46,874 nucleotides of DNA from a phage, in sequence record PZ445467.1. The stretch is one strand, 5' to 3'. Below, piece after piece: positions 1,442 through 46,254 of this stretch. Position 1 is the stretch's first letter; each line of letters opens with the position of its first letter. A program made the position numbers and the translations under genes. Under the pieces are notes generated by a model. The model was not told where the DNA came from. It saw nothing but the letters and a program-made list of their open reading frames with translations, and did no database searches.

Positions 1442-1481
1442 TTGACCAATCTACACCGAGCGCATAGTATAATCTACATCA
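1442..1481 (+). promoter_or_regulatory. sigma70-like promoter (TTGACC 1442-1447, TAGTAT 1465-1470) overlapped by two copies of the conserved ATCTAC motif
   Basis: -35/-10 hexamers with 17-bp spacer; motif copies at 1447-1457 and 1471-1481; 21 bp upstream of ATG 1502. Confidence 0.45.
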
Positions 1482-1501
1482 TGCTTACCGGAGATATTAC
1501 T

Positions 1502-1708
1502 ATGCGCAGCTATGCAGGATTCACACAGGAGGAAAAAGAGCAGGTTTATTCACTGGCGCGCGCTGGTGTGCCTGATGAGGTGATTTGCCGTCGGTATGAC
1601 ATCGACGAGGATTTTCTGCTGCGCGTTCTGGATGATGTCTTCGTTAACCTGCAAGAGAGGCGCGGGTACAAGGGTATCTGCTGCAAGAATGATTTTTTGA
1701 GAGGGTAA
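1502..1708 (+). CDS. hypothetical protein (68 aa)
   Basis: ATG with GGAGA 7 nt upstream; within track ORF 1442..1708. Confidence 0.5.
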   Translation: MRSYAGFTQEEKEQVYSLARAGVPDEVICRRYDIDEDFLLRVLDDVFVNLQERRGYKGICCKNDFLRG

Positions 1709-1709
1709 T

Positions 1710-2117
1710 GTGTTTAATAATAAATTAAAGAAAAGAATCCGTGACGCTGCGGATAAGAAATACACCAAAAAGATTGACATATCATTCATCGACGGTGCTG
1801 GATTGTACAATCACGCCTGCCACCTGAATGCAGTGAACCGTGCGCGGGATGGTAGCTCGTGCGCAGTGGTTGAGGTGGTTATAATTAATGATGATGGCGC
1901 AACAGCTCATTACATCAATATGCAGTCGGACGGTTCTTATGTTGATTACACGCTCGGCTGGCACTGGTCTGGCGCTGATTACCGATTTGTGCGATTTGTT
2001 CCGTTTACTGAATGGTCGGATATTACAGGCTCGTTAAGCAGACTGAAGGCCGGGCTGTGCAGGTCAGTGGCTAAATGGCAGAAGTTGTTGATGATAACTG
2101 ATGGTGAACTTTGCTGA
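1710..2117 (+). CDS. hypothetical protein (135 aa, GTG start)
   Basis: ORF abuts previous stop; no in-frame ATG near the start. Confidence 0.45.
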   Translation: MFNNKLKKRIRDAADKKYTKKIDISFIDGAGLYNHACHLNAVNRARDGSSCAVVEVVIINDDGATAHYINMQSDGSYVDYTLGWHWSGADYRFVRFVPFTEWSDITGSLSRLKAGLCRSVAKWQKLLMITDGELC

Positions 2118-2126
2118 GGTGATGTG

Positions 2127-2300
2127 ATGAAAATCGAAGGTGATTACGGGCAGTATATTATGATTGATAAGGATTTTGAATACGGAAGCGATCTACTAGT
2201 TGTCAGGCAGACAGGTGATGTAATAGTTGTTGCAATTGAGCAAGCAGAGCAACTAATCGAAGTCCTGCAACGCTGGGTTAATGGTGAGGAGATTGAGTGA
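2127..2300 (+). CDS. hypothetical protein (57 aa)
   Basis: ATG after GAGGTGA; stop overlaps next start; below ORF-track size cutoff. Confidence 0.4.
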   Translation: MKIEGDYGQYIMIDKDFEYGSDLLVVRQTGDVIVVAIEQAEQLIEVLQRWVNGEEIE

Positions 2301-2485
2301 TGAGCGTTTATTTTATTCATGCTGAAGTGCTTGGTGGTGGCGATATTGTTACCAAGGTTTGCGCGATAGCTACGACATCAAACGCCAATGAAGCGTTTGA
2401 TTGGTTTTTAGGTCAGGAATTGGTTGCAAAATACGAAATAAAAGGCTACGACGTCATCATTGATAAACTTGAAAAGGTGGAGTGA
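2300..2485 (+). CDS. hypothetical protein (61 aa)
   Basis: ATG 8 nt after GAGGAG; coupled to neighbours. Confidence 0.45.
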   Translation: MSVYFIHAEVLGGGDIVTKVCAIATTSNANEAFDWFLGQELVAKYEIKGYDVIIDKLEKVE

Positions 2486-2685
2486 TGGATAGAAAACATC
2501 TTCACGAAATGGCGGTCGAACTTAGAAAAAACTTTGAGAGCATCTGGTTTGATAGTCATGATAAATTCAATAAGCAGTATCAGGTTTACGCAAAATGCAG
2601 AGGGTTAGTGATTGGTGATAGAATGGAAAATGCCGTACTCCATCATAGCAACGCCACTATGCACAGGCGAGCATTCGACTACTGA
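2485..2685 (+). CDS. hypothetical protein (66 aa)
   Basis: ATG after AAGGTGGAG; ATGA-type overlap with previous stop. Confidence 0.45.
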   Translation: MDRKHLHEMAVELRKNFESIWFDSHDKFNKQYQVYAKCRGLVIGDRMENAVLHHSNATMHRRAFDY

Positions 2686-2697
2686 TACCATGCTATA

Positions 2698-2725
2698 ATC
2701 CCATCCAACGTGATGGGATTTTTTA
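2698..2725 (+). terminator. rho-independent terminator
   Basis: 8-bp perfect stem ATCCCATC/GATGGGAT, 6-nt loop, followed by TTTTTT. Confidence 0.6.
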
Positions 2726-2735
2726 TTGGTGACAT

Positions 2736-5082: not shown

Positions 5083-5098
5083 GGGCTTGGTTTTATCT
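5069..5098 (+). terminator. rho-independent terminator
   Basis: stem AGCCCTC/GAGGGCT overlapping the stop codon, followed by TGGTTTTAT. Confidence 0.55.
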
Positions 5099-5104
5099 TA
5101 TCAG

Positions 5105-5182
5105 CATACACAGAACGAATATTATTATCGCATACACAGAACGAATATTATTATCGCATACACAGAACGAATATTATTATCG
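5105..5182. repeat. three perfect tandem copies of a 26-bp unit CATACACAGAACGAATATTATTATCG
   Basis: read directly: units at 5105-5130, 5131-5156, 5157-5182; intergenic between convergent genes. Confidence 0.9.
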
Positions 5183-5217
5183 CATAGCACAATATCTCTA
5201 CGACGCTGAATATTGTT

Positions 5218-6490: not shown

Positions 6491-6577
6491 CGTTTGATGT
6501 AGATACTATGCACCACCACTCAATCTACGTCAATAGCCATTGTGATAGAATTAATCATTATTTGAACAGGAGGCAGA
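6491..6577. promoter_or_regulatory. divergent promoter region with two copies of the ATCTAC motif
   Basis: motif at 6521-6533 (+) and inverted copy at 6496-6506; TGTGATAGAAT -10-like at 6541-6551; AGGAGG SD before ATG 6578. Confidence 0.5.
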
Positions 6578-7546: not shown

Positions 7547-8018
7547 ATACTGGCGACCACTGGCAATTATTATAATTGTTGTCTCTGGCGCGTTGTGGGC
7601 GCGTAGCGAAATCATCAGCTACGGCGACCAACGATACGCAGAAGGCAAATCCCAAGCAATCGCCGAACAGAAGGCCGCAGACGAACAAGAGGAGCAACGA
7701 CGCAATGCAGAACTGCAAAAGATTCAGGCTGACGCACAGCAAAGGATTGACGCTGCGCGCAATGATGCTGTCAATGCTGCTGCTAAGTCTGGCAGGTTGC
7801 AGCAACAGCTCGCAAATATCCGCAAGCAGCTCGTCGGATATTCCACCGCTGAGTCCATTGGCAATCCAGCCGCAGAAACCGGAGTTTTGCTTGGAGACGT
7901 GCTCGGCAAATCTGTCGAAAGAAATCGACAACTGGCAGATTATGCTGACAGGGCAAGAGAGGCAGGATTAGCGTGTGAGGCGCAGTATAATTCGCTGCGT
8001 AATAAAAAAGCCCCGTGA
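7527..8018 (+). CDS. Rz: i-spanin (Rz-like)
   Basis: N-terminal TM segment then Ala/Gln-rich coiled-coil region; GGAGG SD; follows endolysin. Confidence 0.65.
   Translation: MMSILAKYWRPLAIIIIVVSGALWARSEIISYGDQRYAEGKSQAIAEQKAADEQEEQRRNAELQKIQADAQQRIDAARNDAVNAAAKSGRLQQQLANIRKQLVGYSTAESIGNPAAETGVLLGDVLGKSVERNRQLADYADRAREAGLACEAQYNSLRNKKAP
7762..7971 (+). CDS. Rz1: o-spanin (Rz1-like lipoprotein) embedded in +1 frame of Rz
   Basis: MMLSMLLLSLAGC lipobox signal, Pro/Ser-rich 69 aa, wholly inside Rz. Confidence 0.55.
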   Translation: MMLSMLLLSLAGCSNSSQISASSSSDIPPLSPLAIQPQKPEFCLETCSANLSKEIDNWQIMLTGQERQD

Positions 8019-9308: not shown

Positions 9309-9412
9309 ATTTACTACTCCTTTTTCGAAATTTATTATTGACGAATCTACGTCACTTAGTCAATACTGTTGGTGTAGAATGATTCTACCACAACGAAAGA
9401 GGTGATGTGGAA
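9309..9412. promoter_or_regulatory. divergent promoter region with ATCTAC motif copies and a 15-bp palindrome
   Basis: TTGACG 9338-9343; motif 9343-9355; palindrome GTAGAATGATTCTAC 9374-9388. Confidence 0.5.
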
Positions 9413-10083: not shown

Positions 10084-10328
10084 CAGCACCACATATGCCA
10101 ATGATGAATGATAGCGGGTTGCTGTGCTGCCCATTCTGTGGCGGGAATGAAGTTTACTTGAATATTGATTTAGTGCTTGTATCTGTCGAATGCGGAGATT
10201 GCTGTGCAAGTTCAGGTGAATGGGGTTCACCGGAAACCGCTGTCAGGCACTGGAACACCCGCAACGGACACCTATACACCGCAGACGACTTCAATCAGGC
10301 AGCAGAGGAGCGTGATTATGGACTATAA
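10080..10328 (+). CDS. Lar-family restriction alleviation protein-like Zn-ribbon protein
   Basis: 82 aa with CPFCGG...ECGDCC zinc-ribbon pattern and HWNTR segment typical of Lar-like proteins. Confidence 0.5.
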   Translation: MTAPHMPMMNDSGLLCCPFCGGNEVYLNIDLVLVSVECGDCCASSGEWGSPETAVRHWNTRNGHLYTADDFNQAAEERDYGL

Positions 10329-10806
10329 ATCACAAATCATGCGCGTGATTATGAATCACCCCGGTTCAACGCGCGCATATATTGAGAAGCATTGCGGAGG
10401 AAAGCATTCAAGCACCACAACGCATCGTTTGCATGAGATGCTTGCGCTTGGATTCATTCGCCGCGAGAAGTCCGTGATTCGCGGTGGGAAGTGGCAGTAT
10501 AAATATTTCATCTCTGATGATGCAGCTGGTATTGATGATGCTATTAAGTGCCATTTGCTTGATAACGCTGGCGCAGAGGTGAAAGAAATCAGCGTAGCCA
10601 CTGGCATTGATTACCGAATCGTGAAAAGCCGCATCCGCATTATGTTTCATAACGGTGATGTAACGCGAAGATATGACCACCACAAGAAGCTGTGGCGTTA
10701 TTCTTGGCATGAGAAGGAAGTTAACGTCAGCAACCTGTTTAATTCACTTCTTCGCAATGTAAGAGGTCGTCATGGGGAAAGCCAAACGCAAGAAGCAAGA
10801 GTATGA
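10318..10806 (+). CDS. putative DNA-binding protein with two winged-helix-like repeats (162 aa)
   Basis: ATG 7 nt after GAGGAG; two related segments (IMRVIMNHPGSTRAYI / KCHLLDNAGAEVKEISVATGIDYRIV). Confidence 0.4.
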   Translation: MDYKSQIMRVIMNHPGSTRAYIEKHCGGKHSSTTTHRLHEMLALGFIRREKSVIRGGKWQYKYFISDDAAGIDDAIKCHLLDNAGAEVKEISVATGIDYRIVKSRIRIMFHNGDVTRRYDHHKKLWRYSWHEKEVNVSNLFNSLLRNVRGRHGESQTQEARV

Positions 10807-15886: not shown

Positions 15887-16059
15887 CACTTCACCTTAAT
15901 CATATGCTGTTTTGCAACCTTCAGGCACTCCTCAAAAATGCCACCCTTCTTTGCGCTCTGATTGCGCTTGTAATACTGAACTGCCGCATCAATTGCCATC
16001 TGGTCGATTTCAGGCAGTTTGGTACGTAGTTGTTTTTCAATGAATTGTTCTGGTGTCAT
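15886..16059 (-). CDS. hypothetical protein (57 aa)
   Basis: ATG with TAATG overlap to MTase stop; stop overlaps DnaN-like start. Confidence 0.4.
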   Translation of the reverse strand: MTPEQFIEKQLRTKLPEIDQMAIDAAVQYYKRNQSAKKGGIFEECLKVAKQHMIKVK

Positions 16060-16856
16060 TAAACGGACCTCATGAATGCTTTAATGAATTCTGCTGCGAC
16101 TTGTGGAACTATGGCATTGCCATAACCGCGCAATCGTCCCACTCTTGCGGATACCCCATGAGTTGCCTCGCAAAATCCGCCTGGTATGACTCTAGTTTCC
16201 TTATCTGCTCCATGGTTGGGTTTCCATGAATCCCATAAACATGAAGCCACATCTGGCGATAAAGAGTATCGTTCCTGAATTTTCCGTCCTTTCTGTAAAA
16301 TGTCTTGCTGAGATCCCCGTAATCCTTCCATCCTCGCGCCGTTGGTGTCGCCCATCCTCGCGCCAAAGATGATTCTTTTCCTTTCCTGTGGAGAGCCGAC
16401 GCTGCAAGCTGGCAATACTGACGCCCCGCAGGCGTAGCCTTTGTCTTCCAGGTTAAGGAATACAAAATCGAGCCAGTGCTTCCCAATTGCTGCTGCAACC
16501 TGCTCTCCAAACAGCAATTCAGGCTTGCACTCTCTGATGAGCCTGAGAAATGCTGGGGCAAGGTGTCGATCGTCGTCAAATCCGAGAGACTTACCGGCAA
16601 CGCTAAACGGCTGGCAAGGTGGTGATCCTGTCCAGAGTCGAGTGCTTTCTGGTATTCCTGCCAGCTGGAGTGCAAGGGGCCACCCTCCGATTCCGGCAAA
16701 GAAGTGACACTGTGTAAATCCTTCCAGGTCTGAAGGGGTGACTTCGGTGATTGATCGTTCATCGACATATCCGTAAGGAATTAGTTTATTGTTAATTAAT
16801 TCACGCAGCCATGCCGCTGCGCCCTTGTCCCACTCATTGTAATAGTGGACCATCAT
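16059..16856 (-). CDS. DNA (cytosine-5)-methyltransferase, orphan; TRD/motif IX appear to lie in the +1 frame
   Basis: frame A has FAGIGG (I), PPCQPFSVAG (IV), GEQV (VI), QERKR (VIII), GNAIVPQVAAEF (X); overlapping ORF 16109..16768 carries IRKL...ARQLMGYP (motif IX-like). Confidence 0.7.
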   Translation of the reverse strand: MMVHYYNEWDKGAAAWLRELINNKLIPYGYVDERSITEVTPSDLEGFTQCHFFAGIGGWPLALQLAGIPESTRLWTGSPPCQPFSVAGKSLGFDDDRHLAPAFLRLIRECKPELLFGEQVAAAIGKHWLDFVFLNLEDKGYACGASVLPACSVGSPQERKRIIFGARMGDTNGARMEGLRGSQQDILQKGRKIQERYSLSPDVASCLWDSWKPNHGADKETRVIPGGFCEATHGVSARVGRLRGYGNAIVPQVAAEFIKAFMRSV

Positions 16857-17665
16857 CACATCTTCTCCAGAATTGCCATCACCTCGTGAATATCAGCAAC
16901 AGGAATCTGGATAAACTCCTCATTCTCTGCCACTACATGACCAGCAGGAAGAATAACGTGGTCAGCTGGCTTCAGTAACTCAATCAGTCGGTCTACTGGC
17001 TTAATCTTTTTCGACTTAAGCACCTTCGCCGTTACCTTATCCTTGCCTTGCGCCTTCGCTTCTTCGACTGCCTCGTCGATAACTTTAACCGCATCATCGC
17101 CATGTTCGCGAGTTACTGCTACGGCATTTGCATAGCTGATTTGCCCTGCACTGATTCGCGCTTTTACTTCGGCTGGCACATCACCCAGTGACAGGTGCAT
17201 CTGCACGTCAGAAACTGAGCGCCCTACCTTCTTGGCGATTTCCTCGTTGGTCCAGCCAAAACCCTTCAGTCGCGTGTAAGCCTTTGCGCGTTCAAACGGG
17301 TCAAGCTGCTTACCCTGACTGGACGACACCATGAAGGCGATTTTATCTGCTTCGCCTCCTGTGAAATCCTTGCACTCAATACGAACAATTGGTGCGCCAC
17401 GCTCAATGGCACGCAACGCTCCGAGATAGCGATGCTGACCATCAAGAATGCGGATTCCCTTCTCGTCTGGAATAACTGTTAATGCTGGCAATGGCTGACC
17501 TGACTCCCAGCACTGCGCGAAATACTCCACATGCTGCTCATCTGCTTCGCGGATGTTGTATCCTGGTTCCAGATAGATTTGCTCAACTGGCACGAGATAT
17601 GTCTTGTTTACCGCGATTCCGTTGCGCGTTTCTTTGTCTGAATAGATTTTGCTTAGTGTTTTCAT
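16856..17665 (-). CDS. ParB-like nuclease/partition-domain protein (269 aa)
   Basis: ILDGQHRYLGA ParB-box-like segment followed by a likely HTH region; GAGGAG SD; stop overlaps MTase start. Confidence 0.55.
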   Translation of the reverse strand: MKTLSKIYSDKETRNGIAVNKTYLVPVEQIYLEPGYNIREADEQHVEYFAQCWESGQPLPALTVIPDEKGIRILDGQHRYLGALRAIERGAPIVRIECKDFTGGEADKIAFMVSSSQGKQLDPFERAKAYTRLKGFGWTNEEIAKKVGRSVSDVQMHLSLGDVPAEVKARISAGQISYANAVAVTREHGDDAVKVIDEAVEEAKAQGKDKVTAKVLKSKKIKPVDRLIELLKPADHVILPAGHVVAENEEFIQIPVADIHEVMAILEKM

Positions 17666-17668
17666 TGT

Positions 17669-18292
17669 TTACTCCTCATCACCGGAATTAGCAATATCGT
17701 AAAACTGACCGTATGTTATCTGCTTAAAGTTATCAGGTATCGTTACCTGTCCATGACCTTCACCTTTTGTATTTGGCACGGCAAAAATCAGGCAATCATC
17801 CTTTTGCGGGTGTTTGCCGCCATGAGTAGACAGCATTGCAAAACCAAATCCGCGACCAGATTGCTCTCCGATTCCGGTGCGTGCGATGCCATAATGATTA
17901 ACAATATAGTCTTTCCATTCTGGCAATAACTTTAATTTCTCGTTTGCCTCGCGCATCACCGCGTCCAGATTTTTGTTGTATTCCCGCCCGTCTTTTGTGT
18001 TTCCTTTTCCGCGAGCCACGATTACACGCTGACCATCCAAGAACTCTTCGCGCTTTATTGTCACAGGGCACGGAAATTCAAACTGCTTACTCCACACAAA
18101 GCTCTCAAGTAAGCCACCACCGACTGCTCCCCAGCTACGTGTCGTGGTGAAAGCGATAGCGCCAACCTTTTTCATGGCGTCGCCAAGAACTTCATTGCGG
18201 CGCTTTTGGATGTCATCATATGCGTCAATAACTTTCTTAACATCAGCACCTTCAACCATGTAATAATCATAATGTTTTGCATTGCTGCTCAT
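17669..18292 (-). CDS. hypothetical protein (207 aa), first gene of leftward operon
   Basis: ATG 18292 is 8 nt after GAGGTGA; track ORF extends to 18310. Confidence 0.5.
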   Translation of the reverse strand: MSSNAKHYDYYMVEGADVKKVIDAYDDIQKRRNEVLGDAMKKVGAIAFTTTRSWGAVGGGLLESFVWSKQFEFPCPVTIKREEFLDGQRVIVARGKGNTKDGREYNKNLDAVMREANEKLKLLPEWKDYIVNHYGIARTGIGEQSGRGFGFAMLSTHGGKHPQKDDCLIFAVPNTKGEGHGQVTIPDNFKQITYGQFYDIANSGDEE

Positions 18293-18310
18293 CTTCATCA
18301 CCTCTAGCAT

Positions 18311-18409
18311 TTATTGTTGTTTCTACGTCACTAACTATAAACGCCACATCAATCTACGTCAACAGGAATATGCTAAAATCATGCTAATCAAAAAACAGGA
18401 GATTTGAGC
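18311..18409. promoter_or_regulatory. divergent promoter region with two ATCTAC motif copies
   Basis: motifs at 18319-18331 and 18350-18363; TGCTAAAAT extended -10 at 18371-18379; AGGAG SD before ATG 18410. Confidence 0.5.
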
Positions 18410-21497: not shown

Positions 21498-21542
21498 CAA
21501 TCTACACCACAAAATAATCACTGTCAACACCTGTGATATAAT
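21498..21542 (+). promoter_or_regulatory. promoter of major tail gene with ATCTAC motif
   Basis: motif 21498-21510; extended -10 TGaTATAAT at 21534-21542; GGAGA SD before ATG 21579. Confidence 0.5.
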
Positions 21543-23287: not shown

Positions 23288-23337
23288 GAATCTACATCAC
23301 CACCTCGCAGGTGTCAACACCACTGAGATGATATAAT
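23288..23337 (+). promoter_or_regulatory. promoter of tail chaperone/tape measure operon with ATCTAC motif
   Basis: motif 23288-23301; GTCAACACC element; extended -10 TGaTATAAT 23329-23337. Confidence 0.5.

Positions 23338-27015: not shown

Positions 27016-27016
<1 letters not shown>
24074..27016 (+). CDS. tail tape measure protein
   Basis: 980 aa, Ala/Gln-rich helical protein with Ala/Thr low-complexity tract and hydrophobic segment near C-terminus. Confidence 0.85.
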
Positions 27017-31738
<4,722 letters not shown>

Positions 31739-31777: not shown

Positions 31778-33685
31778 ATGACTACCACACCAACTAATAA
31801 ACCAATTCCGTCTGAAGACCCGCGCGACCTGAAATTTAATGCCGGGAAAATCGACGAGGTGGTAACATCTAACGCGCATTACTACACCGACCGCTTCGGA
31901 GTTCGCCGGTTTACTATCGCCGGTTTCCAATATACAGCAGAAGAAGCTATCCGTAATTATGGCTATATCACGATGGACAGTTTTGAGGATGGGGCGACAC
32001 TGACGTTGCCTAATCAGGTTCTGCGCTATGAGGCTACTGGCGAATATTACCGCTGGGACGGTGAATTTCCTAAAACTGTTTCTGCCGGCTCAACACCTGA
32101 AGCATCTGGTGGTGTTGGTATTGGTGCATGGGTTAGTGTTGGTGATGCTTCATTGCGCAGTGATTTGGCCCTAAGCACTGGCGCAGGGTTAGTTGGGACA
32201 ACATCCGGCAGGACCGTACAGGCAGAGTTTGACCATTTCAAAATAGGGTATATGACACCCGATGATTTCGGCGCGGTAGGTGATGGTGCCACCGACGACA
32301 CCACGCCTTTGCAACAGGCTATTGACTATTGTTCAAGCAACGGTATCGCGTTAAGAATCCCCGCAAAATCTTATGTTTGGAATGGCGGTATTATAACTTC
32401 ACCCATAACAATAATCGGTGACAGACGTCCAGATTACAATTTTAGCTCCAATTCTATGTCTAACGGGTCTGTCATAATTGGCAATTTAAGATTTTCCGCA
32501 AGCCAGGTGATTATTAAGTCACTTGGTGTGCGTAGGCCTACAGGCTCCCCCGGAGATTGTCTGGTGTTATCGACCGATAACTATGCTGGTGGGTCTTGTA
32601 TTGTTCAAGATGTAGTTGCCGCGGGCCTTTCCGGTTCGGACACGTACCACAGCGTTCTTGTTGAAGGCTACGATTCCGCGCATGTATCTCAAATAACTGG
32701 CGGTTATAATCTTTTTGGCCTCGCGATTAAGTCAAGAAACGTTGTTGCCAGAGGCGTAATAACCGTAAGCTGTGATACTGGCGTTATCATTAAATCTGAT
32801 AGTGAGTTCAGCACGGCAAAAAATGTGGTGCTGGACGGGCACATTAATGTCGGTAATGGTGTTTCTAGTCAAGGTGTTTGGATTTACAGCACAACCGCAC
32901 AACTTGAGCGTATTACCTGCGCAAACTTACAAAGCATCGATTCCGCTATACATATGCGGATTAAGTCCGAAAACGTAGCTAATGACGTGCAAATTGTTGG
33001 GGCAAATTATTCAGGATCTACTTATGCGGATGTGCTCGTCGAAGGCACTTCGGCTGGCACGTTGAACAATGTTAGTTTAGATAGTATAACCGCAGTAAAT
33101 AGCCAGAAATTTATGGCTGCAGGTTTCTGTGAACAACTGATGGTAACAGGATTCTATGGGTCCCTGAAACCCGGCGCTCCCGCCGATACTGCGTTTGAGG
33201 TTAGCGCCGCCGTAGGGCTTTTTAGCGGGTCAAATATCCAACTAGTCCGTCAATACAGCAGTGACCTAATGACAATGAATCTCGGTAACAGTTATCTTAA
33301 TAATAGATTATCATCTGTTAAGGCGAAAGTAATAGGAAACGGCAAACCTAGGCCTGGGTATAAAGAACAGAATCTTAGCGGCGCTGCGGCTACAATGATT
33401 GTTGGCGACAGTTTGGGGCCCTCTGGGGTTGTGTCTGTCACCGCGATATCCTCCGGCAGTTCATTCAGCAGTATTGCTATTAATGACGACTATGGTCAGC
33501 CGGTTAAGCCAGGTTTTCTTCTAATAATCCGAAACGCATCCGCTATCTCGTTCGTTATGAACCATAATCCAGGGTCTGGTGGAATCGCAAATAACGGGGC
33601 GGTTGGTAAGACCATTGCGGACGGAGACACTATAATGTACGTTTTTGACGGGACGAATTGGCGTCAAACTCCATCTATAGCTTAA
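31778..33685 (+). CDS. tailspike with pectate-lyase-fold (beta-helix) depolymerase domain
   Basis: 635 aa; DFGAVGDGATDDTTPLQQAIDYCSSNGIALRIPAKSY is the classic pectate-lyase-3 N-terminal signature; conserved N-terminal anchor region. Confidence 0.75.
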   Translation: MTTTPTNKPIPSEDPRDLKFNAGKIDEVVTSNAHYYTDRFGVRRFTIAGFQYTAEEAIRNYGYITMDSFEDGATLTLPNQVLRYEATGEYYRWDGEFPKTVSAGSTPEASGGVGIGAWVSVGDASLRSDLALSTGAGLVGTTSGRTVQAEFDHFKIGYMTPDDFGAVGDGATDDTTPLQQAIDYCSSNGIALRIPAKSYVWNGGIITSPITIIGDRRPDYNFSSNSMSNGSVIIGNLRFSASQVIIKSLGVRRPTGSPGDCLVLSTDNYAGGSCIVQDVVAAGLSGSDTYHSVLVEGYDSAHVSQITGGYNLFGLAIKSRNVVARGVITVSCDTGVIIKSDSEFSTAKNVVLDGHINVGNGVSSQGVWIYSTTAQLERITCANLQSIDSAIHMRIKSENVANDVQIVGANYSGSTYADVLVEGTSAGTLNNVSLDSITAVNSQKFMAAGFCEQLMVTGFYGSLKPGAPADTAFEVSAAVGLFSGSNIQLVRQYSSDLMTMNLGNSYLNNRLSSVKAKVIGNGKPRPGYKEQNLSGAAATMIVGDSLGPSGVVSVTAISSGSSFSSIAINDDYGQPVKPGFLLIIRNASAISFVMNHNPGSGGIANNGAVGKTIADGDTIMYVFDGTNWRQTPSIA

Positions 33686-36410: not shown

Positions 36411-37037
36411 TCACTCTCCGTGGTTACAGAATTCTTTATGCATCTTTTCTCTAAACTTCATGACAGCAACTCTTGCTTTATCAATATCATGAAATAATCC
36501 AATGTGGTATTTAATACCATTAACCGTACATCTGGCATGCCATTTTTTGCATTGTTTGTTCCAGTAAACACCTTTCACTCCAGATGTATTATTTTTTTGC
36601 TTTTTACGATTAAACTGATTCTGTTCATTGCTTGCTATTCTTAAGTTATCAATCCTGTTGTCATCTCTAATGCCATTAATGTGATCAATATTATCTTCTT
36701 GCCAATAACCATAACAAATCAACCACGCGAGTATGTGAGCATAATACCTATTATTATTTATGCTTATTTCTATGTAACCGTTATCTTTTTTGCAGCCCGC
36801 CAAATCTCCATTGTTTACGCAACCAACAGTCTTGTTCCATGCAAACAAACCAGTTACCAGATTGTAAGTTAAGTTATCTAAAACAACATTACGAGGTATT
36901 CTTTTTCTTCCACCTATGGTGTTTGACCCTGCATTTCCCTGAGCAAAATCTTGCTTTTGCAGTTCCGATAAACTCATTTCCGCAAACCTCGCACTTCTTA
37001 ACGGTGATAGCCATTTCTTAACCTCTATTGTAATCAT
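36411..37037 (-). CDS. HNH homing endonuclease with C-terminal AP2 DNA-binding domain
   Basis: HNH_3 pattern YYAHILAWL...DHINGIRDDNRIDNLR; AP2-like GVKGVYWNKQCKKWHARCTVNGIKYHIGLF. Confidence 0.8.
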   Translation of the reverse strand: MITIEVKKWLSPLRSARFAEMSLSELQKQDFAQGNAGSNTIGGRKRIPRNVVLDNLTYNLVTGLFAWNKTVGCVNNGDLAGCKKDNGYIEISINNNRYYAHILAWLICYGYWQEDNIDHINGIRDDNRIDNLRIASNEQNQFNRKKQKNNTSGVKGVYWNKQCKKWHARCTVNGIKYHIGLFHDIDKARVAVMKFREKMHKEFCNHGE

Positions 37038-37082: not shown

Positions 37083-37430
37083 TCAATCTACATCATTCAG
37101 CAAGCCAAAATAGAAAAGTGTGGCTCTTTTTAGTTCATCAAGACCGTAAGCAATGGCGGCATAATGACCAAGTCTGCACATCTCAGTTAACACAGCCGAT
37201 TGCTCCTTGCTCACTCTGCTTTTGCTTTTATCGCGGCGCTTTGACTCAATCATCCCGCAACTGTGATTCGCACCCGGCGTCATTATCACGTTGTCGCCTA
37301 TTCCAGGCTTAACCCCCATCTTCTGGCGCTTCAGTACGAACTGGACGCGGCTGGATGTTCCTGTTTCATTCGGGACGTGAAACCATAGCACATCAGGGAA
37401 ACAGTGTTGCATCCATGTTCCATAACCCAT
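37083..37430 (-). CDS. VRR-NUC domain nuclease
   Basis: HVPNE...GVKPGIGDNVIM...ESKRRD pattern; ATG 37430 after GAGGAG (track ORF has TTG at 37523). Confidence 0.5.
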   Translation of the reverse strand: MGYGTWMQHCFPDVLWFHVPNETGTSSRVQFVLKRQKMGVKPGIGDNVIMTPGANHSCGMIESKRRDKSKSRVSKEQSAVLTEMCRLGHYAAIAYGLDELKRATLFYFGLLNDVD

Positions 37431-37494
37431 CTGGTCAGTCTCCTCTTTTGGGCATTCGCCGCGATAACCGCTATCAAATACCCATATACCGCTA

Positions 37495-39432
37495 TCAAGC
37501 TGCTTCACTTTGTTCTCCTGCAAAATCTTTTCTATGGATTATGTCGCGACCTTTATCATTAATGCGATGAGTGATGCGTTTTGGCGCTTTAATCAATCCA
37601 GCATACATCATGAACTGCTTAGCATTCTGGCATTTCAGGATTTTCCCCGCCATTGACTTATCATCAAGGTGAGGAAAAATAGCCTTTGCCTTGAACATGT
37701 TTTTCATGTGAGTCGCACCGCCATATGGGTAGAAAACTTCGTTAGCCCAGCCTTCTTTGCCATCACAACGATTAATCCAGTAGCGATACAAAATACCTTC
37801 TCCATCCTTTGTTAGCTGGACTTTGAAATCAATAACATCAGCCCACTCATTATCGGTATACGCACGCTCATTCAGTGCCGCATTCGGGTCGCGCAACACG
37901 TGATCGCAATGCCGGCAATAGCGCGCCGTTGGGTCGTTTTTAGTGCCGCATCCATCATCAAAAATCCGTATTCCGTGCTTATCAAAACCGCAACGAATAT
38001 AACTGAAAAACTCCTCGCAGCGACCATCTGGCGACAATGCATCTTTGCCAATGCATCGACGCGCATATGGGCTGTTCATTGTTCCACATGTATGACACGG
38101 AACTTGTTCGCCACTGCGTTTTGAACGTTGCGCTTCAGCTTCTTCCAGAATTGGGTCTTCATATAGCTGACCAAGCTCAAACATCGTGCCTGAGAAATCA
38201 AGAACCAGATGGTTTTCTTTATGATACCCGGCGTCAATTTGGTCTTTCTTCAGCAGTCGCATTCCGCGACCAAGCAACTGAACAAGAAGGGTGAGCGACA
38301 TTATTTTTCGCAATATAACGCTTGTATCCCATAGCGGGATGTTTACGCCGGTCGTCAAGCAACCAATTTGGAAAACATATTTAATCTTGCCAGTGTATGC
38401 ATCCTTTAATGCCTTGCGTCTGGCTTTCTGTCCCATATCTTCGGTGACGATCGCATAACTTCCTTCAGGTAGGTATTTTGCCGCCTCCTGACAGTGCTTC
38501 TTGCCAGCGCATGTAATCAATACGCCGTTTCTGTTTTTTGTCAGCTCCATAACCTTGAGCATGATTTTCTGCGTGAGTGTTCCTTGCTCAAGGATTTCTT
38601 TCTGCATCTGCTTGAGTTGCTCGGTGGTAAATTCCTGAACTCCATCACTTCCTGACGCCTCAAATGCTGACAGGTCGTAATGCAGATCATCAATATCATG
38701 AAGACCAAAAATTGTAGGGACAAGAAAGCCATTATCAACAAGGTATTTGGTATCAATATTTATTATTTCATGCTTCCAGTAAGAACCCTTAATTGACTCA
38801 GTTCCACGAAATGGGCTGCCAGTGTAGCCAATAACAATGACATCGTGTCCGTATTTAGCTTTGCACCTACGGTTAAATTCGGTCATTATTACGCCGTACT
38901 GTGTGTCTGAATCTTCTCCAACAATATCCTCCCAGTTCACTTGATGGCACTCATCAACCAAAATATATCGTGGGCAAAAGTCTGAAAGTGCACACTTTGA
39001 GATAACATTGCCTGATTCATCCTTTATGTCGAAAAGTGAGTTTTTTATTGTTCTCTCCGTCCCAGCAATAAGCGGGTATGCCGTTGACTTTCTGCCAAGA
39101 GACGCGCTGAAAAGTGAGTTTTTAACACTCAGATTCCATAGCTCTTCCGCATCCTGCTCAATAATTTCCCCCTGTCTGGCAATAACAAGGCCTTCCCACC
39201 CCATATCCTGAAAGCGTCGCGCAATCATGGCAATCATAATGGTCTTTCCAGCACCTACAGATGCCGTCACAAAACTTGGCTTAGGGTCTTTGCCAAACTT
39301 GCGGATAACTTCAGCCGTCTTTTCATAAACCAGCCACTGATATGGTCGCGGCTCAATCTCACCCGTATGAACAACTGACCGCAATTTGTCTATATCCAAT
39401 TCAGCAATCATTGCGTCTATTTTATGCGTCAT
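37495..39432 (-). CDS. DExH-box superfamily II helicase (645 aa)
   Basis: Walker A ASVGAGKT; DECH box (VDECHQV); Cys-rich C-terminal region. Confidence 0.7.
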   Translation of the reverse strand: MTHKIDAMIAELDIDKLRSVVHTGEIEPRPYQWLVYEKTAEVIRKFGKDPKPSFVTASVGAGKTIMIAMIARRFQDMGWEGLVIARQGEIIEQDAEELWNLSVKNSLFSASLGRKSTAYPLIAGTERTIKNSLFDIKDESGNVISKCALSDFCPRYILVDECHQVNWEDIVGEDSDTQYGVIMTEFNRRCKAKYGHDVIVIGYTGSPFRGTESIKGSYWKHEIINIDTKYLVDNGFLVPTIFGLHDIDDLHYDLSAFEASGSDGVQEFTTEQLKQMQKEILEQGTLTQKIMLKVMELTKNRNGVLITCAGKKHCQEAAKYLPEGSYAIVTEDMGQKARRKALKDAYTGKIKYVFQIGCLTTGVNIPLWDTSVILRKIMSLTLLVQLLGRGMRLLKKDQIDAGYHKENHLVLDFSGTMFELGQLYEDPILEEAEAQRSKRSGEQVPCHTCGTMNSPYARRCIGKDALSPDGRCEEFFSYIRCGFDKHGIRIFDDGCGTKNDPTARYCRHCDHVLRDPNAALNERAYTDNEWADVIDFKVQLTKDGEGILYRYWINRCDGKEGWANEVFYPYGGATHMKNMFKAKAIFPHLDDKSMAGKILKCQNAKQFMMYAGLIKAPKRITHRINDKGRDIIHRKDFAGEQSEAA

Positions 39433-39507
39433 AGCTACTAACCTTTGTTGATGTTTCTACGTCAGTTAGCTTATACTCAATCTACACCAACAATCAAGGG
39501 TCAATTT
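39433..39507. promoter_or_regulatory. divergent promoter region (helicase leftward, primase rightward) with two ATCTAC motif copies
   Basis: TTGATG 39448-39453, TATACT 39472-39477; motifs 39453-39465 and 39478-39491. Confidence 0.5.
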
Positions 39508-43042: not shown

Positions 43043-43486
43043 ATTATGATTGAATCATATCATAAGTATTGAATCATGCAACATCAAATACGACTCACGT
43101 GGGTAACGTGGGGCAGCCGTGGGGAACATCACCTTCCCCACGAACTTTTACTCTAAGTATATGTAATATAATATAATTATTATTATTTGGGTTAATGGGT
43201 AATATTATTATTCATATTATAGATAGTAATTAACATAATATTAACAAATGGATTATTTGAATATATTTATAAGGGGATGGGTATGAAATCTGCCCCTTTT
43301 TACCCACGAAAAATAAAAACATTCAAATCAATAATTTACGATGAAAAACGTGGGGCAACCAACCTTCCCCACGACCTGCCCCACGAGCAAAAATTTACCC
43401 CACGGGCACGTTTTTAACGCATCCCTGTTGACGTAGAATCATCGTTGATGTAGATTGAACTCATCGAAACAAACGAGGGTGAAGAG
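43043..43486. promoter_or_regulatory. origin-like region: two clusters of CGTGGGG/CCCCACG heptamers flanking a ~155-bp AT-rich tract, plus divergent promoters
   Basis: heptamer copies between 43098-43142 and 43301-43407; AT-rich 43145-43300; TTGACG 43428-43433 and TAGATT 43451-43456; inverted motif copies 43429-43439, 43446-43457. Confidence 0.5.
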
Positions 43487-43950: not shown

Positions 43951-43986
43951 CATCGATTCAGCAGGCTTATTTCTAATGGTGATGAT

Positions 43987-44220
43987 ATGGAAAAAGTAAA
44001 AACATACGAGTTCTGGTTTGTGCAGAACAAAATGTATGCAAGCAGGACAATCAAGAGAGTCAGCTGGTGGAATAAGTGGTTAATCCTCTCCGGCTGCATC
44101 GTGCTGGCAAAGTGCAAATTCAAAGCGATTGACATCACCGGTGAAGATGCACTCACAATCGCAAAGATTGAGTTTGAAGAAGATGGCTATTACGAAGAAA
44201 TTATGGGGGTTAGGGTATGA
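43987..44220 (+). CDS. hypothetical protein (77 aa)
   Basis: ATG start; one hydrophobic segment. Confidence 0.45.
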   Translation: MEKVKTYEFWFVQNKMYASRTIKRVSWWNKWLILSGCIVLAKCKFKAIDITGEDALTIAKIEFEEDGYYEEIMGVRV

Positions 44221-44495
44221 GTGAAGAATCACGCGGAACAGTAAAAGCAAAAACATACTCAGTACCGAGAAGCGCAATTCCGCATCCTCCTGATGGTGAT
44301 GGATATTACGTGACTGTTGTTGAGATTGCTGACTACATGGCCTGCCTCAACAGAATCACAGAAATGAGCGTCGAAAACTATCACATGAAGAATCGCATTG
44401 CAGAGCTTGAGTCTGCATTAAATCGCCATTATGAGTTACCTGACGTTTATGATATGGCAGTAAAGCAATTCGAAAGCCTGGCTAAAAGTGAATAG
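44217..44495 (+). CDS. hypothetical protein (92 aa)
   Basis: ATGA overlap with previous gene. Confidence 0.45.
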   Translation: MSEESRGTVKAKTYSVPRSAIPHPPDGDGYYVTVVEIADYMACLNRITEMSVENYHMKNRIAELESALNRHYELPDVYDMAVKQFESLAKSE

Positions 44496-44558
44496 CTACC
44501 CGTTCATATTAATTATCAGTGCGCTCTATGTGGCGCACGCTTTAGTGGAGATGTATGG

Positions 44559-44945
44559 ATGAGCAATAGATATATTTATCACTACAACGCAATATCTGTG
44601 GGCGGCGCGTCATCAGTGGCTGGCATCGCTCAGTTGACATTCAGAATTAAATCGCAAGAAGATGTCGAGATGCTGAAGAGTTTGATTGGCCGTGACGGTT
44701 TCACAGCAGTAGCAATCGCATCTCTTTCATATCTCTGGCGAGAGAATGATGACGAAGGGTATGACGCAACAAAATTCGACCAGGCGTTTTTGATTAACAA
44801 ATTCTACGAGCGTTATCCGCTTCCTGAATTTAAGAGTGATTCAGAGCGAGCAGAGGCACTTGGTTACTTCATGACTGGTGCAGAATTACAGCGACTTGGA
44901 AAGTTTATCGAATACAACGATGAGGATGATAGTGATGATTACTAA
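44559..44945 (+). CDS. hypothetical protein (128 aa) with acidic C-terminus
   Basis: ATG after GGAG. Confidence 0.5.
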   Translation: MSNRYIYHYNAISVGGASSVAGIAQLTFRIKSQEDVEMLKSLIGRDGFTAVAIASLSYLWRENDDEGYDATKFDQAFLINKFYERYPLPEFKSDSERAEALGYFMTGAELQRLGKFIEYNDEDDSDDY

Positions 44946-45045
44946 ACAACAACGACGCCGCTACACCACTGGCGCTAAAATCTTCCTTACTGTTTATGTG
45001 CTGGCACTGGTGGCGGCTATTGCAGGAGTTGTGCATTATGTTTAA
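44935..45045 (+). CDS. small membrane peptide (36 aa)
   Basis: MITKQQRRRYTTGAKIFLTVYVLALVAAIAGVVHYV; overlaps both neighbours; speculative. Confidence 0.25.
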   Translation: MITKQQRRRYTTGAKIFLTVYVLALVAAIAGVVHYV

Positions 45046-45343
45046 TCAATTATCTGATTTTTATAAAGCATATTCAGACTGGGTTGCCGCTGGCGCAACA
45101 GAAGGCAAACCATTTAGCCGTCACGTCGGGCTTTGTGGCTCTATTTTTCTTTACCTTTCTATGAAAGGATATCCAATAAAAGATAGAAAAATTACTCTTG
45201 AGATGATGCGAGCGCAGTTTGTTAAGGCTGGTCTTGACCGTGAGTACCCGTTTAATAACCAAAAGAACCCATACCGTATGGAAAGCATTAATGGGCTGAT
45301 TCACACCAACAAGAATCGCATCCAGTGGGTTAAAAAGGAGTAG
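45038..45343 (+). CDS. hypothetical protein (101 aa), flanked by 19-bp direct repeats
   Basis: ATG 45038 after AGGAG; track ORF starts at 44996. Confidence 0.45.
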   Translation: MFNQLSDFYKAYSDWVAAGATEGKPFSRHVGLCGSIFLYLSMKGYPIKDRKITLEMMRAQFVKAGLDREYPFNNQKNPYRMESINGLIHTNKNRIQWVKKE

Positions 45344-45585
45344 TGCATTATGTTTAACGATATCAGTGACGCAATGCAAAACATGTGGGAATGATACTGG
45401 AACAGCATGAAGACGTGTCACTACATGATGGTACAGATAGGTAATTACATTGAGGTTGTGCCTGATACTGGTGTTCACAACATTAAGTGCATGTGTTCTA
45501 CGAGGGCTTTTGCGAATGCAAACAACTAAGCAGAAAGTCTGGCAACTCGCCAAACAACACGAATTAGACGATTTCATCGCGAAGG

Positions 45586-46110
45586 TTGCAAAGACATTCC
45601 CTGACGCGCTTGAAGTCGTTCATGTGCAGACGCGAAATGAAAATGCATGGTGCTACACAAAAAATCATACAAATGGTAGATGAAATGAAGCTAACAAAAA
45701 AACAACGCGAAGAGCTACGCATGAAGTTCGGTGGTCGCTGTGCTTATTGTGGGTGTGAGCTACCCGAGAAAGGTTGGCATGCAGACCATGTTGAACCAGT
45801 GCTACGTAAATCTGAGCAGTGCATGAAGGCAGCGGCGAAAGGGATTTTCAAGCTGAAGGCAACCGGTGAGCTATATCGACCAGAAGCCGAGCGACTGGAA
45901 AACCTTTACCCTGCGTGCGCCCCCTGCAATCTGATGAAAACTTCCTATTCCCTGGAAATGTTCAGGAAGCAGGTATCTCTTCAGGTTGCTCGTGGGCGCA
46001 AAAGCAGCATGAATTTCCGCACTGCAGAGCGTTTCGGTCTTATCGCCGTGGTGGAGAAACCAGTTGTTTTCTGGTTTGAGAAATACCAGGAAGAGAACGA
46101 AAAAAAATAA
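45586..46110 (+). CDS. HNH endonuclease (terminase-associated type); start uncertain (45622 or 45685 likely)
   Basis: CAYCG...HADHV...CAPCN HNH zinc-finger pattern; lies just upstream of the putative terS. Confidence 0.65.
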   Translation: MQRHSLTRLKSFMCRREMKMHGATQKIIQMVDEMKLTKKQREELRMKFGGRCAYCGCELPEKGWHADHVEPVLRKSEQCMKAAAKGIFKLKATGELYRPEAERLENLYPACAPCNLMKTSYSLEMFRKQVSLQVARGRKSSMNFRTAERFGLIAVVEKPVVFWFEKYQEENEKK

Positions 46111-46206
46111 ATGTGTTTATGATGCTCTGTTGGCAAGCGCGATAATGATGGTGTACAATAAACGCATAACCACCATTGCTTTCACTCATATCATCACCCA
46201 ACCTTT

Positions 46207-46233
46207 AACCCGCCTTGTGCGGGTTCTTTTTTA
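46207..46233 (+). terminator. rho-independent terminator
   Basis: stem AACCCGC/GCGGGTT with 5-nt loop then CTTTTTT. Confidence 0.6.
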
Positions 46234-46254
46234 TCTACGTCTATGTGTTAAAAT
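46232..46254 (+). promoter_or_regulatory. promoter-like element with ATCTACGTC motif upstream of putative terS
   Basis: motif 46232-46241; TGtgTTAAAAT extended -10-like 46245-46254. Confidence 0.35.

Follow-up and report, generated by a model that had tools for sequence, protein, structure and literature searches.

A 13-nt asymmetric motif, TSAWTCTACRYCA, recurs over promoter-like sequences throughout the window, the complete 46,874-nt genome of a virulent Skatevirus-cluster phage (PZ445467.1; 98% identical to Bas77), where it is enriched in noncoding DNA and conserved in related phages. On balance, and judging from sequence, we think that this motif is probably the operator of a cluster-specific regulon, through which a phage protein would occlude early promoters.

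The sequence-only reading had listed by eye about 17 copies of a conserved repeat with core ATCTACRYCA, and the repeat is real: the window holds 11 exact matches against 0.35 expected, none of 100 shuffles reaches 11, and 29 matches appear when one mismatch is allowed (10.2 expected). Sixteen of the listed copies lie within 1-2 nt of the positions first assigned to them; the seventeenth (9383-9392) is only degenerate, and the list had missed an exact copy at 27708 and weak ones at 31743, 23336 and 46149 (minus strand). The full 13-mer has neither a dyad nor a bipartite partner. The copies had also been described as almost all intergenic, which is borne out: with the gene map transferred from Bas77, by which 5.1% of the window is noncoding, 13 of the 15 copies of WTCTACRYCA are noncoding, a density ~120-fold higher than in coding DNA, and this genome-wide count excludes an equal density in coding sequence (binomial P = 1.5e-15). 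A fourteenth copy (37086) lies across the final codons of a small ORF, at the border with intergenic DNA, and all six divergent intergenic regions hold at least one. The copies, which are frequently paired, are given below with the predicted promoters around them; transcription start sites and early or late classes were predicted from the sequence and the kinds of genes present.

1449-1458, plus strand: ATCTACACCG, within the 17-nt spacer of P_A (TTGACC 1442-1447, TAGTAT 1465-1470)
1472-1481, plus strand: ATCTACATCA, beginning 2 nt past the P_A -10, in the +1 region, upstream of an early-type small-gene cluster (1502-2685)
6495-6504, minus strand: abuts the downstream side of the leftward P_B-left -10 (CATAGT, 6510..6505)
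6523-6532, plus strand: reverse complement forms the -35 TTGACG (6533..6528) of P_B-left; its end is 13 nt upstream of the TAGAAT hexamer in the lysis genes' extended -10 TGATAGAAT (6543-6551)
9345-9354, plus strand: inside the spacers of two divergent promoters at once, P_C-right (9338..9367) and P_C-left (9363..9334)
9370-9379, minus strand: TTCTACACCA, +1 region of P_C-right
9383-9392, plus strand: degenerate copy TTCTACCACA (PWM score 8.2), forming a short inverted repeat with 9370-9379
18321-18330, plus strand: TTCTACGTCA, +1 region of the leftward P_D-left, whose operon includes the ParB-like gene
18352-18361, plus strand: forms the -35 TTGACG (18362..18357) of P_D-left (TTGACG-17-TATAGT, 10 of 12 matches); a late operon's extended -10 TGCTAAAAT (18371-18379) lies 9 nt downstream
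21500-21509, plus strand: forms the -10 TAGATT of a leftward promoter (TTGACA-17-TAGATT, 21527..21499); also 27 nt upstream of the TATAAT (TGATATAAT, 21534) in the major tail gene's promoter
23290-23299, plus strand: forms the -10 TAGATT of a leftward promoter (TTGACA-17-TAGATT, 23317..23289); also 32 nt upstream of the TATAAT (TGATATAAT, 23329) in the tail operon's promoter
27708-27717, plus strand: sole exact copy deep in coding DNA (ORF 27016-28389), with promoter elements not found nearby; may be chance or a relic
37086-37095, plus strand: where two minus-strand genes of the replication module meet, upstream of the HNH gene 36411-37037
39455-39464, plus strand: TTCTACGTCA, within the P_H-right spacer (TTGATG 39448, TATACT 39472-39477; primase gene), and at the +1 region of a leftward helicase promoter that overlaps P_H-right
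39480-39489, plus strand: +1 region of P_H-right, also the spacer of a leftward promoter (TTGATT-16-TATAAG, read by eye)
43429-43438, minus strand: forms the -35 TTGACG (43428-43433) of P_I-right
43446-43455, minus strand: forms the P_I-right -10, TAGATT (43451-43456); early small genes follow from 43487
46233-46242, plus strand: ATCTACGTCT, closely follows a terminator; the packaging genes' extended -10 TGTTAAAAT (46246-46254) lies 3 nt downstream

Nearly all strong copies fall within -35 to +10 of a sigma-70-consensus promoter, mostly that of an early-type operon, and the best sigma-70-like matches of a promoter scan coincide with copies (TTGACG-17-TATAGT at 18362..18334, TTGACT-18-AATAAT at 9363..9334 and TTGACA-17-TAGATT at 21527 and 23317, with others at 1442, 6533, 9338, 39448 and 43428). 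The -10-like hexamers previously noted beside the copies are thus present, and the proposal of a protein-binding site rather than a core promoter element holds in part: the motif is separate from the core elements in its variable position and orientation, yet is interwoven with them, because its reverse complement, TGAYGTAGAT, supplies the -35 TTGACG at three promoters and the -10 TAGATT at three. Depending on the promoter, it occupies the spacer, the -35, the -10, the +1 region or a place 22-32 nt upstream, in both orientations as first described, and in regions B-left and J relatives carry it at one position but in opposite orientations. Such variation fits a protein-binding operator; a sigma-70 core element (-35, -10 or extended -10), which requires fixed position and orientation, was rejected on these grounds. 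Across the three genomes compared, the motif in regions E and F keeps a fixed 12-13 nt from the leftward -35 but lies anywhere between 22 and 32 nt from the rightward late -10, and this, together with the flips, fits steric repression better than contact-dependent activation. Placement inside core promoters likewise points to repression rather than activation; of the regulator operator and the activator box first left as alternatives, the operator fits better.

Late genes have extended -10 promoters that lack a -35, and seven of the eight intergenic TGnTAnAAT elements are located 29-45 nt upstream of late genes. At three late promoters (6543, 18371, 46246) a copy lies about 5-13 nt upstream of the -10 hexamer and could conceivably play a role there, positive or negative; the late-type portal promoter (2691) has no motif copy.

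Comparison with related phages, which the sequence-only reading had proposed, places the motif at orthologous promoter regions in Skate, CF-SP1, the Klebsiella phage VLCpiS13a and the Roufvirus pYD38-A, four lineages with only ~55-80% protein identity in common. The consensus is identical in every clade, the 13-mer being invariant where flanking DNA has diverged, and no other 10-11-mer occurs at least three times in each of five genomes. VLCpiS13a has 13 copies against 0.5 expected, at all orthologous promoter regions found. The motif is also retained in a phage recorded on a Vibrio host, and the unrelated coliphage Alux-21 has one copy.

From this arrangement we infer a form of self-limiting control. 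A phage-made sequence-specific DNA-binding protein would occupy ~16 copies within the sigma-70-consensus promoter cores (-35 to +10) of early-type operons, comprising small genes, replication genes and the operons with two candidate regulator genes, and would there exclude host RNA polymerase. Early transcription would be shut down as the protein builds up, leaving polymerase for late genes with their extended -10 promoters.

Like known multi-copy asymmetric operators, which are 13-17 bp long, the motif is dispersed over promoters and intergenic spaces. Operators and "stoperators" of mycobacteriophage L5 gp71 were reportedly described by Brown et al. in 1997. In L5, the phage HTH protein gp71 binds, as a monomer, an asymmetric 13-bp site that recurs many times over the genome in promoters and in short gaps between genes, and silences transcription from there; the motif resembles this site in length, asymmetry, copy number and placement. 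However, L5 is temperate, gp71 is its immunity repressor, and stoperators keep one orientation relative to transcription, unlike the mixed orientation seen here. Phage P1 C1 operators are likewise many, dispersed and asymmetric, single or paired, in either orientation and overlapping promoters of many operons, all as in the window, but the P1 operator spans 17 bp, and C1, a protein of 283 aa from a temperate plasmid prophage, is unrelated. Full membership of the L5 gp71 or P1 C1 type was rejected, as it needs a temperate phage with a homologous immunity repressor: no gp71 homologue was detected and no lysogeny genes are annotated in the window phage, annotations and Pfam scans of the window yielded no integrase, protelomerase or repressor family, and papers describing members of the cluster mention no genes associated with lysogeny.

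Other systems match less closely. The MarA/SoxS/Rob marbox is an asymmetric, degenerate 20-bp activator site bound by an AraC-type fold in either orientation and at variable distance; one polypeptide with two DNA-binding units would act similarly here, although the window has a sharply defined 13-mer placed within core promoters. Copies 6523 and 18352, which lie 12-13 nt from a -10, resemble the T4 MotA box, a phage-specific element near -30 with the sigma-70 -10 kept. The MotA box, however, keeps one position and one orientation and depends on MotA and AsiA; T4-type middle promoters were rejected since only two or three copies show the 12-13 nt gap and the rest vary, from -50 to +10, and neither family was found among ~56 window proteins scanned against Pfam. 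Kagunavirus phages, small virulent siphoviruses that infect the same hosts and have no known RNA polymerase of their own, carry a PHIRE-detected repeat, tgAATAGTa-ccTATTat-T, with seven intergenic copies per genome reported as "phage promoters" (PMC7203180, PMC9825357). That repeat is partly palindromic, differs in sequence and lineage from our motif, and is absent from the window. A T7-type promoter for a phage RNA polymerase, the usual reading of PHIRE repeats, was rejected, as it needs such an enzyme, and neither Pfam scans of the ~56 window proteins nor the annotated genes of Bas77, Skate, VLCpiS13a and CF-SP1 include one.

Two proteins, both named as candidates by the sequence-only reading, were considered as binders:

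10318-10806, plus strand: 162 aa, two tandem winged-helix domains, in the early operon from P_C-right
16856-17665, minus strand: 269 aa, ParB/Spo0J/Noc/KorB family, in the operon from P_D-left

The winged-helix protein, acting as a monomer, is the most likely candidate, and its tandem winged helices fit an asymmetric site, though its case falls a little short of probable. An AlphaFold model (pLDDT 83.5) places both domains in one chain, and the gene sits within an early operon downstream of a motif-bearing promoter. The family has eight representatives among 1.84 billion proteins, all in the Skatevirus-like phage cluster. In domain 2 the recognition helix and wing are invariant (I101, K103, R105, R107, R117, W126, Y128, W130); overall, the protein is 35-54% identical across clades and the domain 1 recognition helix is not conserved, and such variability beside an invariant motif counts against it. 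The gene is cleanly deleted in seszw_260L, a viable engineered large-plaque mutant (PMC9825161). By our count this mutant keeps 15 motif copies. A MarR-family repressor with its operator, a homodimer on a (pseudo)palindrome, was rejected (MarR_2, 18.5 bits vs a Pfam cut-off of 27; two winged helices per chain; a nonpalindromic site). PHROG 1687 carries the label "MarR family" as annotation only.

The ParB-like protein is a possible but doubtful binder, which would act as a global silencer in the manner of KorB of plasmid RK2, its flexibly linked HTH domains engaging single or paired copies at variable spacing. It is a genuine member of its family (Pfam HTH_ParB 2.5e-11, KorB 4.5e-6; PDB matches to Spo0J 1vz0, 6e-13, KorB 8qa8, 3e-3, and also Noc), and residues ~100-215, with the HTH among them, hardly differ between Skate, CF-SP1 and pYD38-A (almost 100% identity), a near-frozen DNA-reading region to match a frozen motif; overall identity (99% with Skate, 80-86% with the homologues in CF-SP1 and pYD38-A) exceeds that of terminase or portal. 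The genome-reduced seszw mutants examined keep the gene, among them seszw_260L, from which its neighbours were deleted, copies are often paired, and no other conserved repeat or genome-wide conserved palindrome was found as its possible site. The RK2 KorB/KorA regulon similarly combines a ParB-family protein, operators at most operons' promoters and a second small HTH protein. Yet sites of ParB, Noc and KorB are palindromes (13 bp for KorB, some acting at a distance), and the asymmetric, often single 13-mer inside core promoters is not the palindromic 13-16 bp site of ParB-parS or KorB-OB. Motif and protein occur together in Skate, CF-SP1, pYD38-A and seszw_260L; the natural isolate VLCpiS13a, whose ParB gene is down to a 50-aa remnant, a loss that may be recent, still has its 13 copies; the Alux-21 homologue (50% identical) instead accompanies a palindrome, aCAATSATTGt (six copies, mostly intragenic); the CTP-binding motif has a degenerate arginine patch (GQHR vs GERR); and neither annotation nor Pfam shows a ParA-type partner ATPase in the window or relatives.

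Each candidate gene is lost in one viable phage that keeps the motif. If the copies were mainly or additionally activator boxes, recruiting polymerase to late extended -10 promoters while overlapping early promoters are repressed, in the manner of phi29 p4 or monomeric activators of the MarA type, a forward copy upstream of five of the seven late-type extended -10 promoters would be explained (gaps to the -10 hexamer of 13, 12, 6, 27 and 32 nt for copies 6523, 18352, 46233, 21500 and 23290), as would the 11-13 nt gap conserved at the lysis and head-tail promoters in VLCpiS13a and CF-SP1. We consider this unlikely, given the drifting gaps at the two tail promoters opposite fixed early spacing, the inversion of the packaging-promoter copy in VLCpiS13a, CF-SP1 and Skate, the portal promoter without a copy, the viability of phages missing either protein, and the ability of extended -10 promoters to fire without an activator. 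That dispensability, and well-documented hosts that are all Enterobacteriaceae, would suit a host transcription factor conserved in enterobacteria, but such a binder is quite improbable: we know of no E. coli regulator site that matches, unrelated coliphages such as Alux-21 lack the repeat, the motif persists in the phage recorded on Vibrio, and Kagunavirus phages on the same hosts have a different repeated motif (PMC7203180 Table S4, PMC9825357 Table S2). Still harder to credit is a repeat with no dedicated binding protein, reflecting shared ancestry or the sequence preference of sigma-70 promoters, e.g. for TTGACG/TAGATT; the reverse motif does hold -35-like and -10-like hexamers, with six uses in promoters, but its invariant core TCTAC..C belongs to no sigma-70 element, the hexamers leave spacer and +1 copies unexplained, and the 13-mer stays invariant across clades while its flanks diverge.

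Were the winged-helix protein the binder, the regulon would be dispensable in the laboratory. Occlusion of early promoters by a phage protein would make the motif a familiar kind of control element, undescribed for the Skate-like phage group.

The repeated 13-bp motif (core ATCTACRYCA, looser form WTCTACRYCA) is well supported as a real, conserved family of regulatory sites. ATCTACRYCA has 11 matches in the window where 0.35 would be expected, a count reached in none of 100 shuffles. The sequence-only reading had claimed about 17 copies, and a weight matrix built from its own sites recovered 16 strong copies and a few weak ones. The intergenic bias that it had described also held up on formal counting, as 13 of the 15 WTCTACRYCA copies lie in the 5.1% of the window that is non-coding (2,391 bp; binomial P=1.5e-15), at a ~120-fold higher density. 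Here the gene map consists of genes transferred from phage Bas77 by tblastn, with gaps filled by ORFs. The copy at 37086 overlaps the final codons of a small ORF, at its junction with intergenic DNA, and the copy at 27708 is the sole one deep within a gene, with promoter features absent nearby. All six divergent intergenic regions, which by their divergence must contain promoters, carry copies, and terminators account for most of the copy-free intergenic regions. The consensus of 62 unique sites, taken from four genomes, is the asymmetric 13-mer T-S-A-W-T-C-T-A-C-R-Y-C-A, and no second half-site was found at any fixed distance from it in this set.

The window is a complete 46,874-bp phage genome that begins with the terminase large-subunit gene and is ~98% identical to Escherichia phage ClaudiaMuster_Bas77. 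Its capsid region leads to the cluster around Salmonella phage Skate, made up of Skatevirus, Swiduovirus, Roufvirus and unclassified relatives, with 218 records of matching capsid region from Salmonella, Klebsiella, Escherichia and Shigella sources. A placement in Guernseyvirinae was dropped, as the capsid-region search and the BASEL paper both lead to the Skatevirus cluster. The homologue of Bas77 gene 90 at 45350-45526 is 98% identical but possibly a pseudogene, because it contains an in-frame stop codon.

Within this cluster, the comparison with related phages that had been proposed found the motif over-represented at orthologous promoter regions of four further lineages, namely Skate, Klebsiella phage VLCpiS13a (13 copies vs 0.5 expected), Salmonella phage CF-SP1 (17 intergenic copies) and Roufvirus pYD38-A (11 copies), whose proteins are only ~55-80% identical to those of the window. 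The flanks of the copies have diverged and the 13-mer is unchanged, with the same consensus in each clade; among 10-11-mers, the motif alone reaches three or more occurrences in each of the five genomes. Promoter regions newly made by gene insertions carry their own copies (e.g. Skate 2190-2226), and orientation may switch between relatives: the copy left of the lysis promoter is inverted (window 6495(-), VLCpiS13a 44831(+)), and at the packaging promoter the window shares a forward copy with Bas77 and pYD38-A, the copy being reversed in VLCpiS13a, CF-SP1 and Skate. When IMG/VR was scanned for TCAATCTACGTCAA, 47 Skate-like loci and 73 unrelated loci came up; as the unrelated loci look mostly like chance, these matches were dropped as a tracer of distribution.

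A consensus promoter scan did not yield more promoter-like sites in total than shuffles, as expected for so loose a pattern, but its best matches coincide with the motif. Fourteen of the 16 strong copies lie within -35 to +10 of one of nine predicted promoters; the exceptions are 37086, whose promoter was read by eye only, and 46233, which lies at an extended -10 promoter.

Predicted sigma-70-consensus promoters carrying the motif, and positions of the copies (start coordinates)
1442..1470, +, P_A, TTGACC-17-TAGTAT
6533..6505, -, P_B-left, TTGACG-17-CATAGT
9338..9367, +, P_C-right, TTGACG-18-AATACT
9363..9334, -, P_C-left, TTGACT-18-AATAAT
18362..18334, -, P_D-left, TTGACG-17-TATAGT
21527..21499, -, P_E-left, TTGACA-17-TAGATT
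23317..23289, -, P_F-left, TTGACA-17-TAGATT
39448..39477, +, P_H-right, TTGATG-18-TATACT
43428..43456, +, P_I-right, TTGACG-17-TAGATT
1449, 9345, 39455: copies within the promoter spacer
1472, 6495, 9370, 18321, 39480: copies directly after the -10
6523, 18352, 43429: copies supplying the -35 TTGACG
21500, 23290, 43446: copies supplying the -10 TAGATT

The view that the motif is a separate binding site rather than a core promoter element is supported, with a qualification: its position varies and both orientations occur, but it forms the -35 at three promoters and the -10 at three others. Behind the motif-bearing promoters lie genes for replication, small unknown genes in clusters and the operons of both candidate regulators considered below, and it is on this gene content that we call these promoters early-type. 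The late genes (portal, lysis, head-tail, major tail, tail, tail fibre, packaging) have an extended -10 upstream with no recognisable -35. The pattern TGnTAnAAT has 17 matches in the genome, eight of them intergenic, and seven of these eight lie 29-45 nt upstream of late-type genes.

Several local features of these promoters are worth recording. The portal promoter, a perfect extended -10 (TGCTATAAT, 2691-2720) 45 nt upstream of its gene, is the only late-type promoter without a motif copy; it lies partly over the 5' arm of a hairpin terminator (2697-2720, with a T run), with which it may compete. P_E-left (21499-21527), a strong promoter by sequence, is directed into a frameshifted remnant of a Bas77 gene (21010-21493), and its equivalent in Skate, VLCpiS13a and pYD38-A faces minus-strand tRNA genes; the window contains no tRNA gene, and the product of its P_E-left would be an antisense or orphan RNA. 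In deposited annotations, several genes begin upstream of or across motif-bearing promoters (window 39451-39507; Bas77 40437; seszw_260L 32249-32590), including a primase starting from TTG 39451, a 113-aa version of the 68-aa ORF at 1502-1708 and a 41-aa ORF over 18295-18384. More plausible starts are ATG 39508 and ATG 1502, both with a ribosome-binding site.

A sharp, asymmetric, multi-copy site that lies within core promoters, is indifferent to orientation and persists as a conserved island amid drift bears the signature of a repressor operator. Beyond the anatomy of the sites, which is read directly, we infer from sequence that the motif serves as the operator of a sequence-specific repressor. 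An early phage protein would bind the sites and occlude RNA polymerase at early promoters, including that of its own operon, so as first to limit and later to shut off early transcription, and the extended -10 late promoters would stay free to fire. Less probably, the motif could act positively at those three late promoters where a copy lies 5-13 nt ahead of the -10 hexamer. Across the window, VLCpiS13a and CF-SP1, the motif keeps a constant 12-13 nt from the opposing -35 in the two tail-gene regions, and its distance to the late -10 varies from 22 to 32 nt. The motif is not a phage-polymerase promoter, because no polymerase gene appears in the annotations of Bas77, Skate, VLCpiS13a or CF-SP1 or in Pfam scans of the window's proteins, nor, given its variable position, a MotA-type box.

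As to the protein that would bind this putative operator, Pfam scans of ~56 window proteins found no DNA-binding domains besides those of the two candidates already named in the sequence-only reading, a winged-helix protein (wHTH, 10318-10806) and the HTH of a ParB-like protein (16856-17665). We place the winged-helix protein slightly short of an even chance and regard the ParB-like protein as a rather unlikely but serious candidate, with the remainder going to another phage protein or a host factor. The 162-aa winged-helix protein is confidently modelled as two tandem winged-helix domains plus a C-terminal helix (pLDDT 83.5). Foldseek returned only generic tandem-winged-helix and MarR matches, and its Pfam MarR_2 match fell below threshold, and it does not qualify for the MarR family. 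Its own family has eight representatives among 1.84 billion proteins, all within this phage cluster, and the motif, as far as traced, has the same cluster restriction. A single chain with two DNA-reading units, as modelled, would suit an asymmetric site, and the helix and wing of domain 2 are invariant across clades; these features favor this candidate. Against it, the domain-1 recognition helix varies and identity falls to 35%, and nonetheless the motif is unchanged, with no clade-specific differences tracking this divergence across the clades searched. The 35%-identical homologue was detected by tblastn at -evalue 10 with filtering afterwards and missed at -evalue 1e-3. In the engineered mutant seszw_260L, which is viable and forms large plaques, seszw gene 7, the winged-helix gene, is cleanly deleted (PMC9825161). 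That genome still has 15 motif copies, which also speaks against this binder.

The 269-aa ParB-like protein is a true relative of ParB/Spo0J/Noc/KorB. Among the clades compared, the central part of the protein, with the HTH, shows nearly 100% identity, matching the undrifting motif, and its gene is retained in the reduced seszw genomes examined. Moreover, no other conserved repeat or palindrome is on offer as its site: a separate parS-like palindrome was looked for and not found, CATTAATG being neither significant nor conserved. The known ParB-family binding sites are palindromes, however, and the motif is asymmetric; VLCpiS13a still has its 13 copies with the gene cut to 50 residues; and in Alux-21, an unrelated phage, a homologue with 50% identity accompanies a palindrome, not the motif. 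Whichever candidate binds, plaque formation is possible without the regulon. A small, universally conserved protein (1502-1708) has a predicted three-helix HTH-like fold (pLDDT 82) and is only a weak third candidate, because it is acidic and no fold match reaches significance.

Around the ParB-like gene, we also observed variation among relatives. VLCpiS13a (L004) keeps an N-terminal remnant annotated as a 60-aa hypothetical protein (7618-7800; 58% identity over 50 aa), with the remainder deleted and no methyltransferase gene either; sister isolates such as VLCpiS13b keep the full gene. In the window, its neighbors are a DNA methyltransferase (16059-16856) and a 213-aa ORF (17669-18310), both missing in Skate, CF-SP1, VLCpiS13a and seszw_260L, and the operon is therefore an accessory-gene hotspot; Bas77 has the methyltransferase and an annotated anti-restriction gene there. 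Alux-21 (L128) carries six aCAATSATTGt palindromes (1456, 4839, 22285, 33250, 36994, 39106), mostly intragenic, with one ~80 bp upstream of its ParB-like gene; these are plausibly a dispersed parS-type site set for its ParB-like protein.

Other repeats were seen as well. At 5098-5191, 3.5 tandem copies of the 26-bp unit TTATCGCATACACAGAACGAATATTA (97% matches) lie in the convergent intergenic region between a head-morphogenesis gene and a minus-strand gene, directly after a bidirectional terminator. The 444-bp intergenic region at 43043-43486 adjoins a DUF3987 primase/helicase-like gene. Its centre is very AT-rich, and on either side of it lie CCCCACG copies, together all seven in the genome (43107-43142, 43349-43404; 2.5 expected); by its sequence the region looks like an iteron-type replication origin, and in VLCpiS13a a comparable region carries GGGGCA/GGGGAA repeats. 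TTGATAGCGGT occurs twice as a direct repeat 21 bp apart (37465-37497, minus strand) in the gap from the helicase gene to the minus-strand gene that follows, with marginal genome-wide enrichment (14 vs 7 with one mismatch), and in VLCpiS13a the packaging genes are preceded by two copies of ATAGCGGAA (L004 ~36770-36795); these may form a second, smaller regulatory motif.

In its proposed working mode, the motif is closest to the operators of two temperate phages, the multi-copy asymmetric 13-bp sites of mycobacteriophage L5 gp71 and the 17-bp sites of phage P1 C1, although no homologous repressor or lysogeny module appears in the annotations or Pfam scans. The global regulon run by KorB/KorA on plasmid RK2 comes close too, but KorB sites are palindromic. 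The motif belongs to none of these families. Kagunavirus, small siphoviruses of the same hosts, have a different repeated motif, reported as 'phage promoters' (PMC7203180 Table S4; PMC9825357 Table S2). This PHIRE motif was rejected as the identity of ours, being another sequence and absent from the window; that Kagunavirus has its own suggests that lineage-specific operator families are common. A sequence resembling the Kagunavirus motif, GAATAGTAGACTATT, directly adjoins an inverted pair, ATCTACATCAA-N5-TTGACGTAGAT, in three unrelated IMG/VR contigs (L008 6961-6990, L022 8503-8531, L067 473-501). In L022, genes for a serine invertase and a tail fibre are close by, and the whole may be a mosaic regulatory region. 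In the literature searched, with papers on phage E1 and 9NA-like phages standing outside it, we found no description of the motif or of any promoter analysis of the cluster.

A bolder and distinctly improbable version is that the ParB/KorB-like protein, alone or with the winged-helix protein as a KorB/KorA-like pair, silences essentially the whole genome through asymmetric sites. If true, a plasmid-style global silencing circuit would exist in a phage group regarded as strictly virulent, and could account for a carrier or pseudolysogenic state, or for genome protection, among ~200 sequenced enterobacterial phages.

In practical terms, the 13-mer is a candidate portable operator for phage engineering, and cluster member seszw already serves as a genome-minimisation chassis. 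The circuit is simple and testable, with two named candidate regulators and a deletion of each at hand (engineered for the winged-helix gene, natural for the ParB-like gene in VLCpiS13a). The motif map also flags gene starts that are likely mis-annotated and run over promoters, and tells apart two promoter classes, operator-bearing sigma-70-consensus and extended -10 late. It offers the first map of transcription units and of a regulon for the Skatevirus/Swiduovirus/Roufvirus cluster. Phages of this widely used group infect Salmonella, E. coli, Shigella and Klebsiella; over 200 have been sequenced, and many are proposed for therapy or biocontrol.
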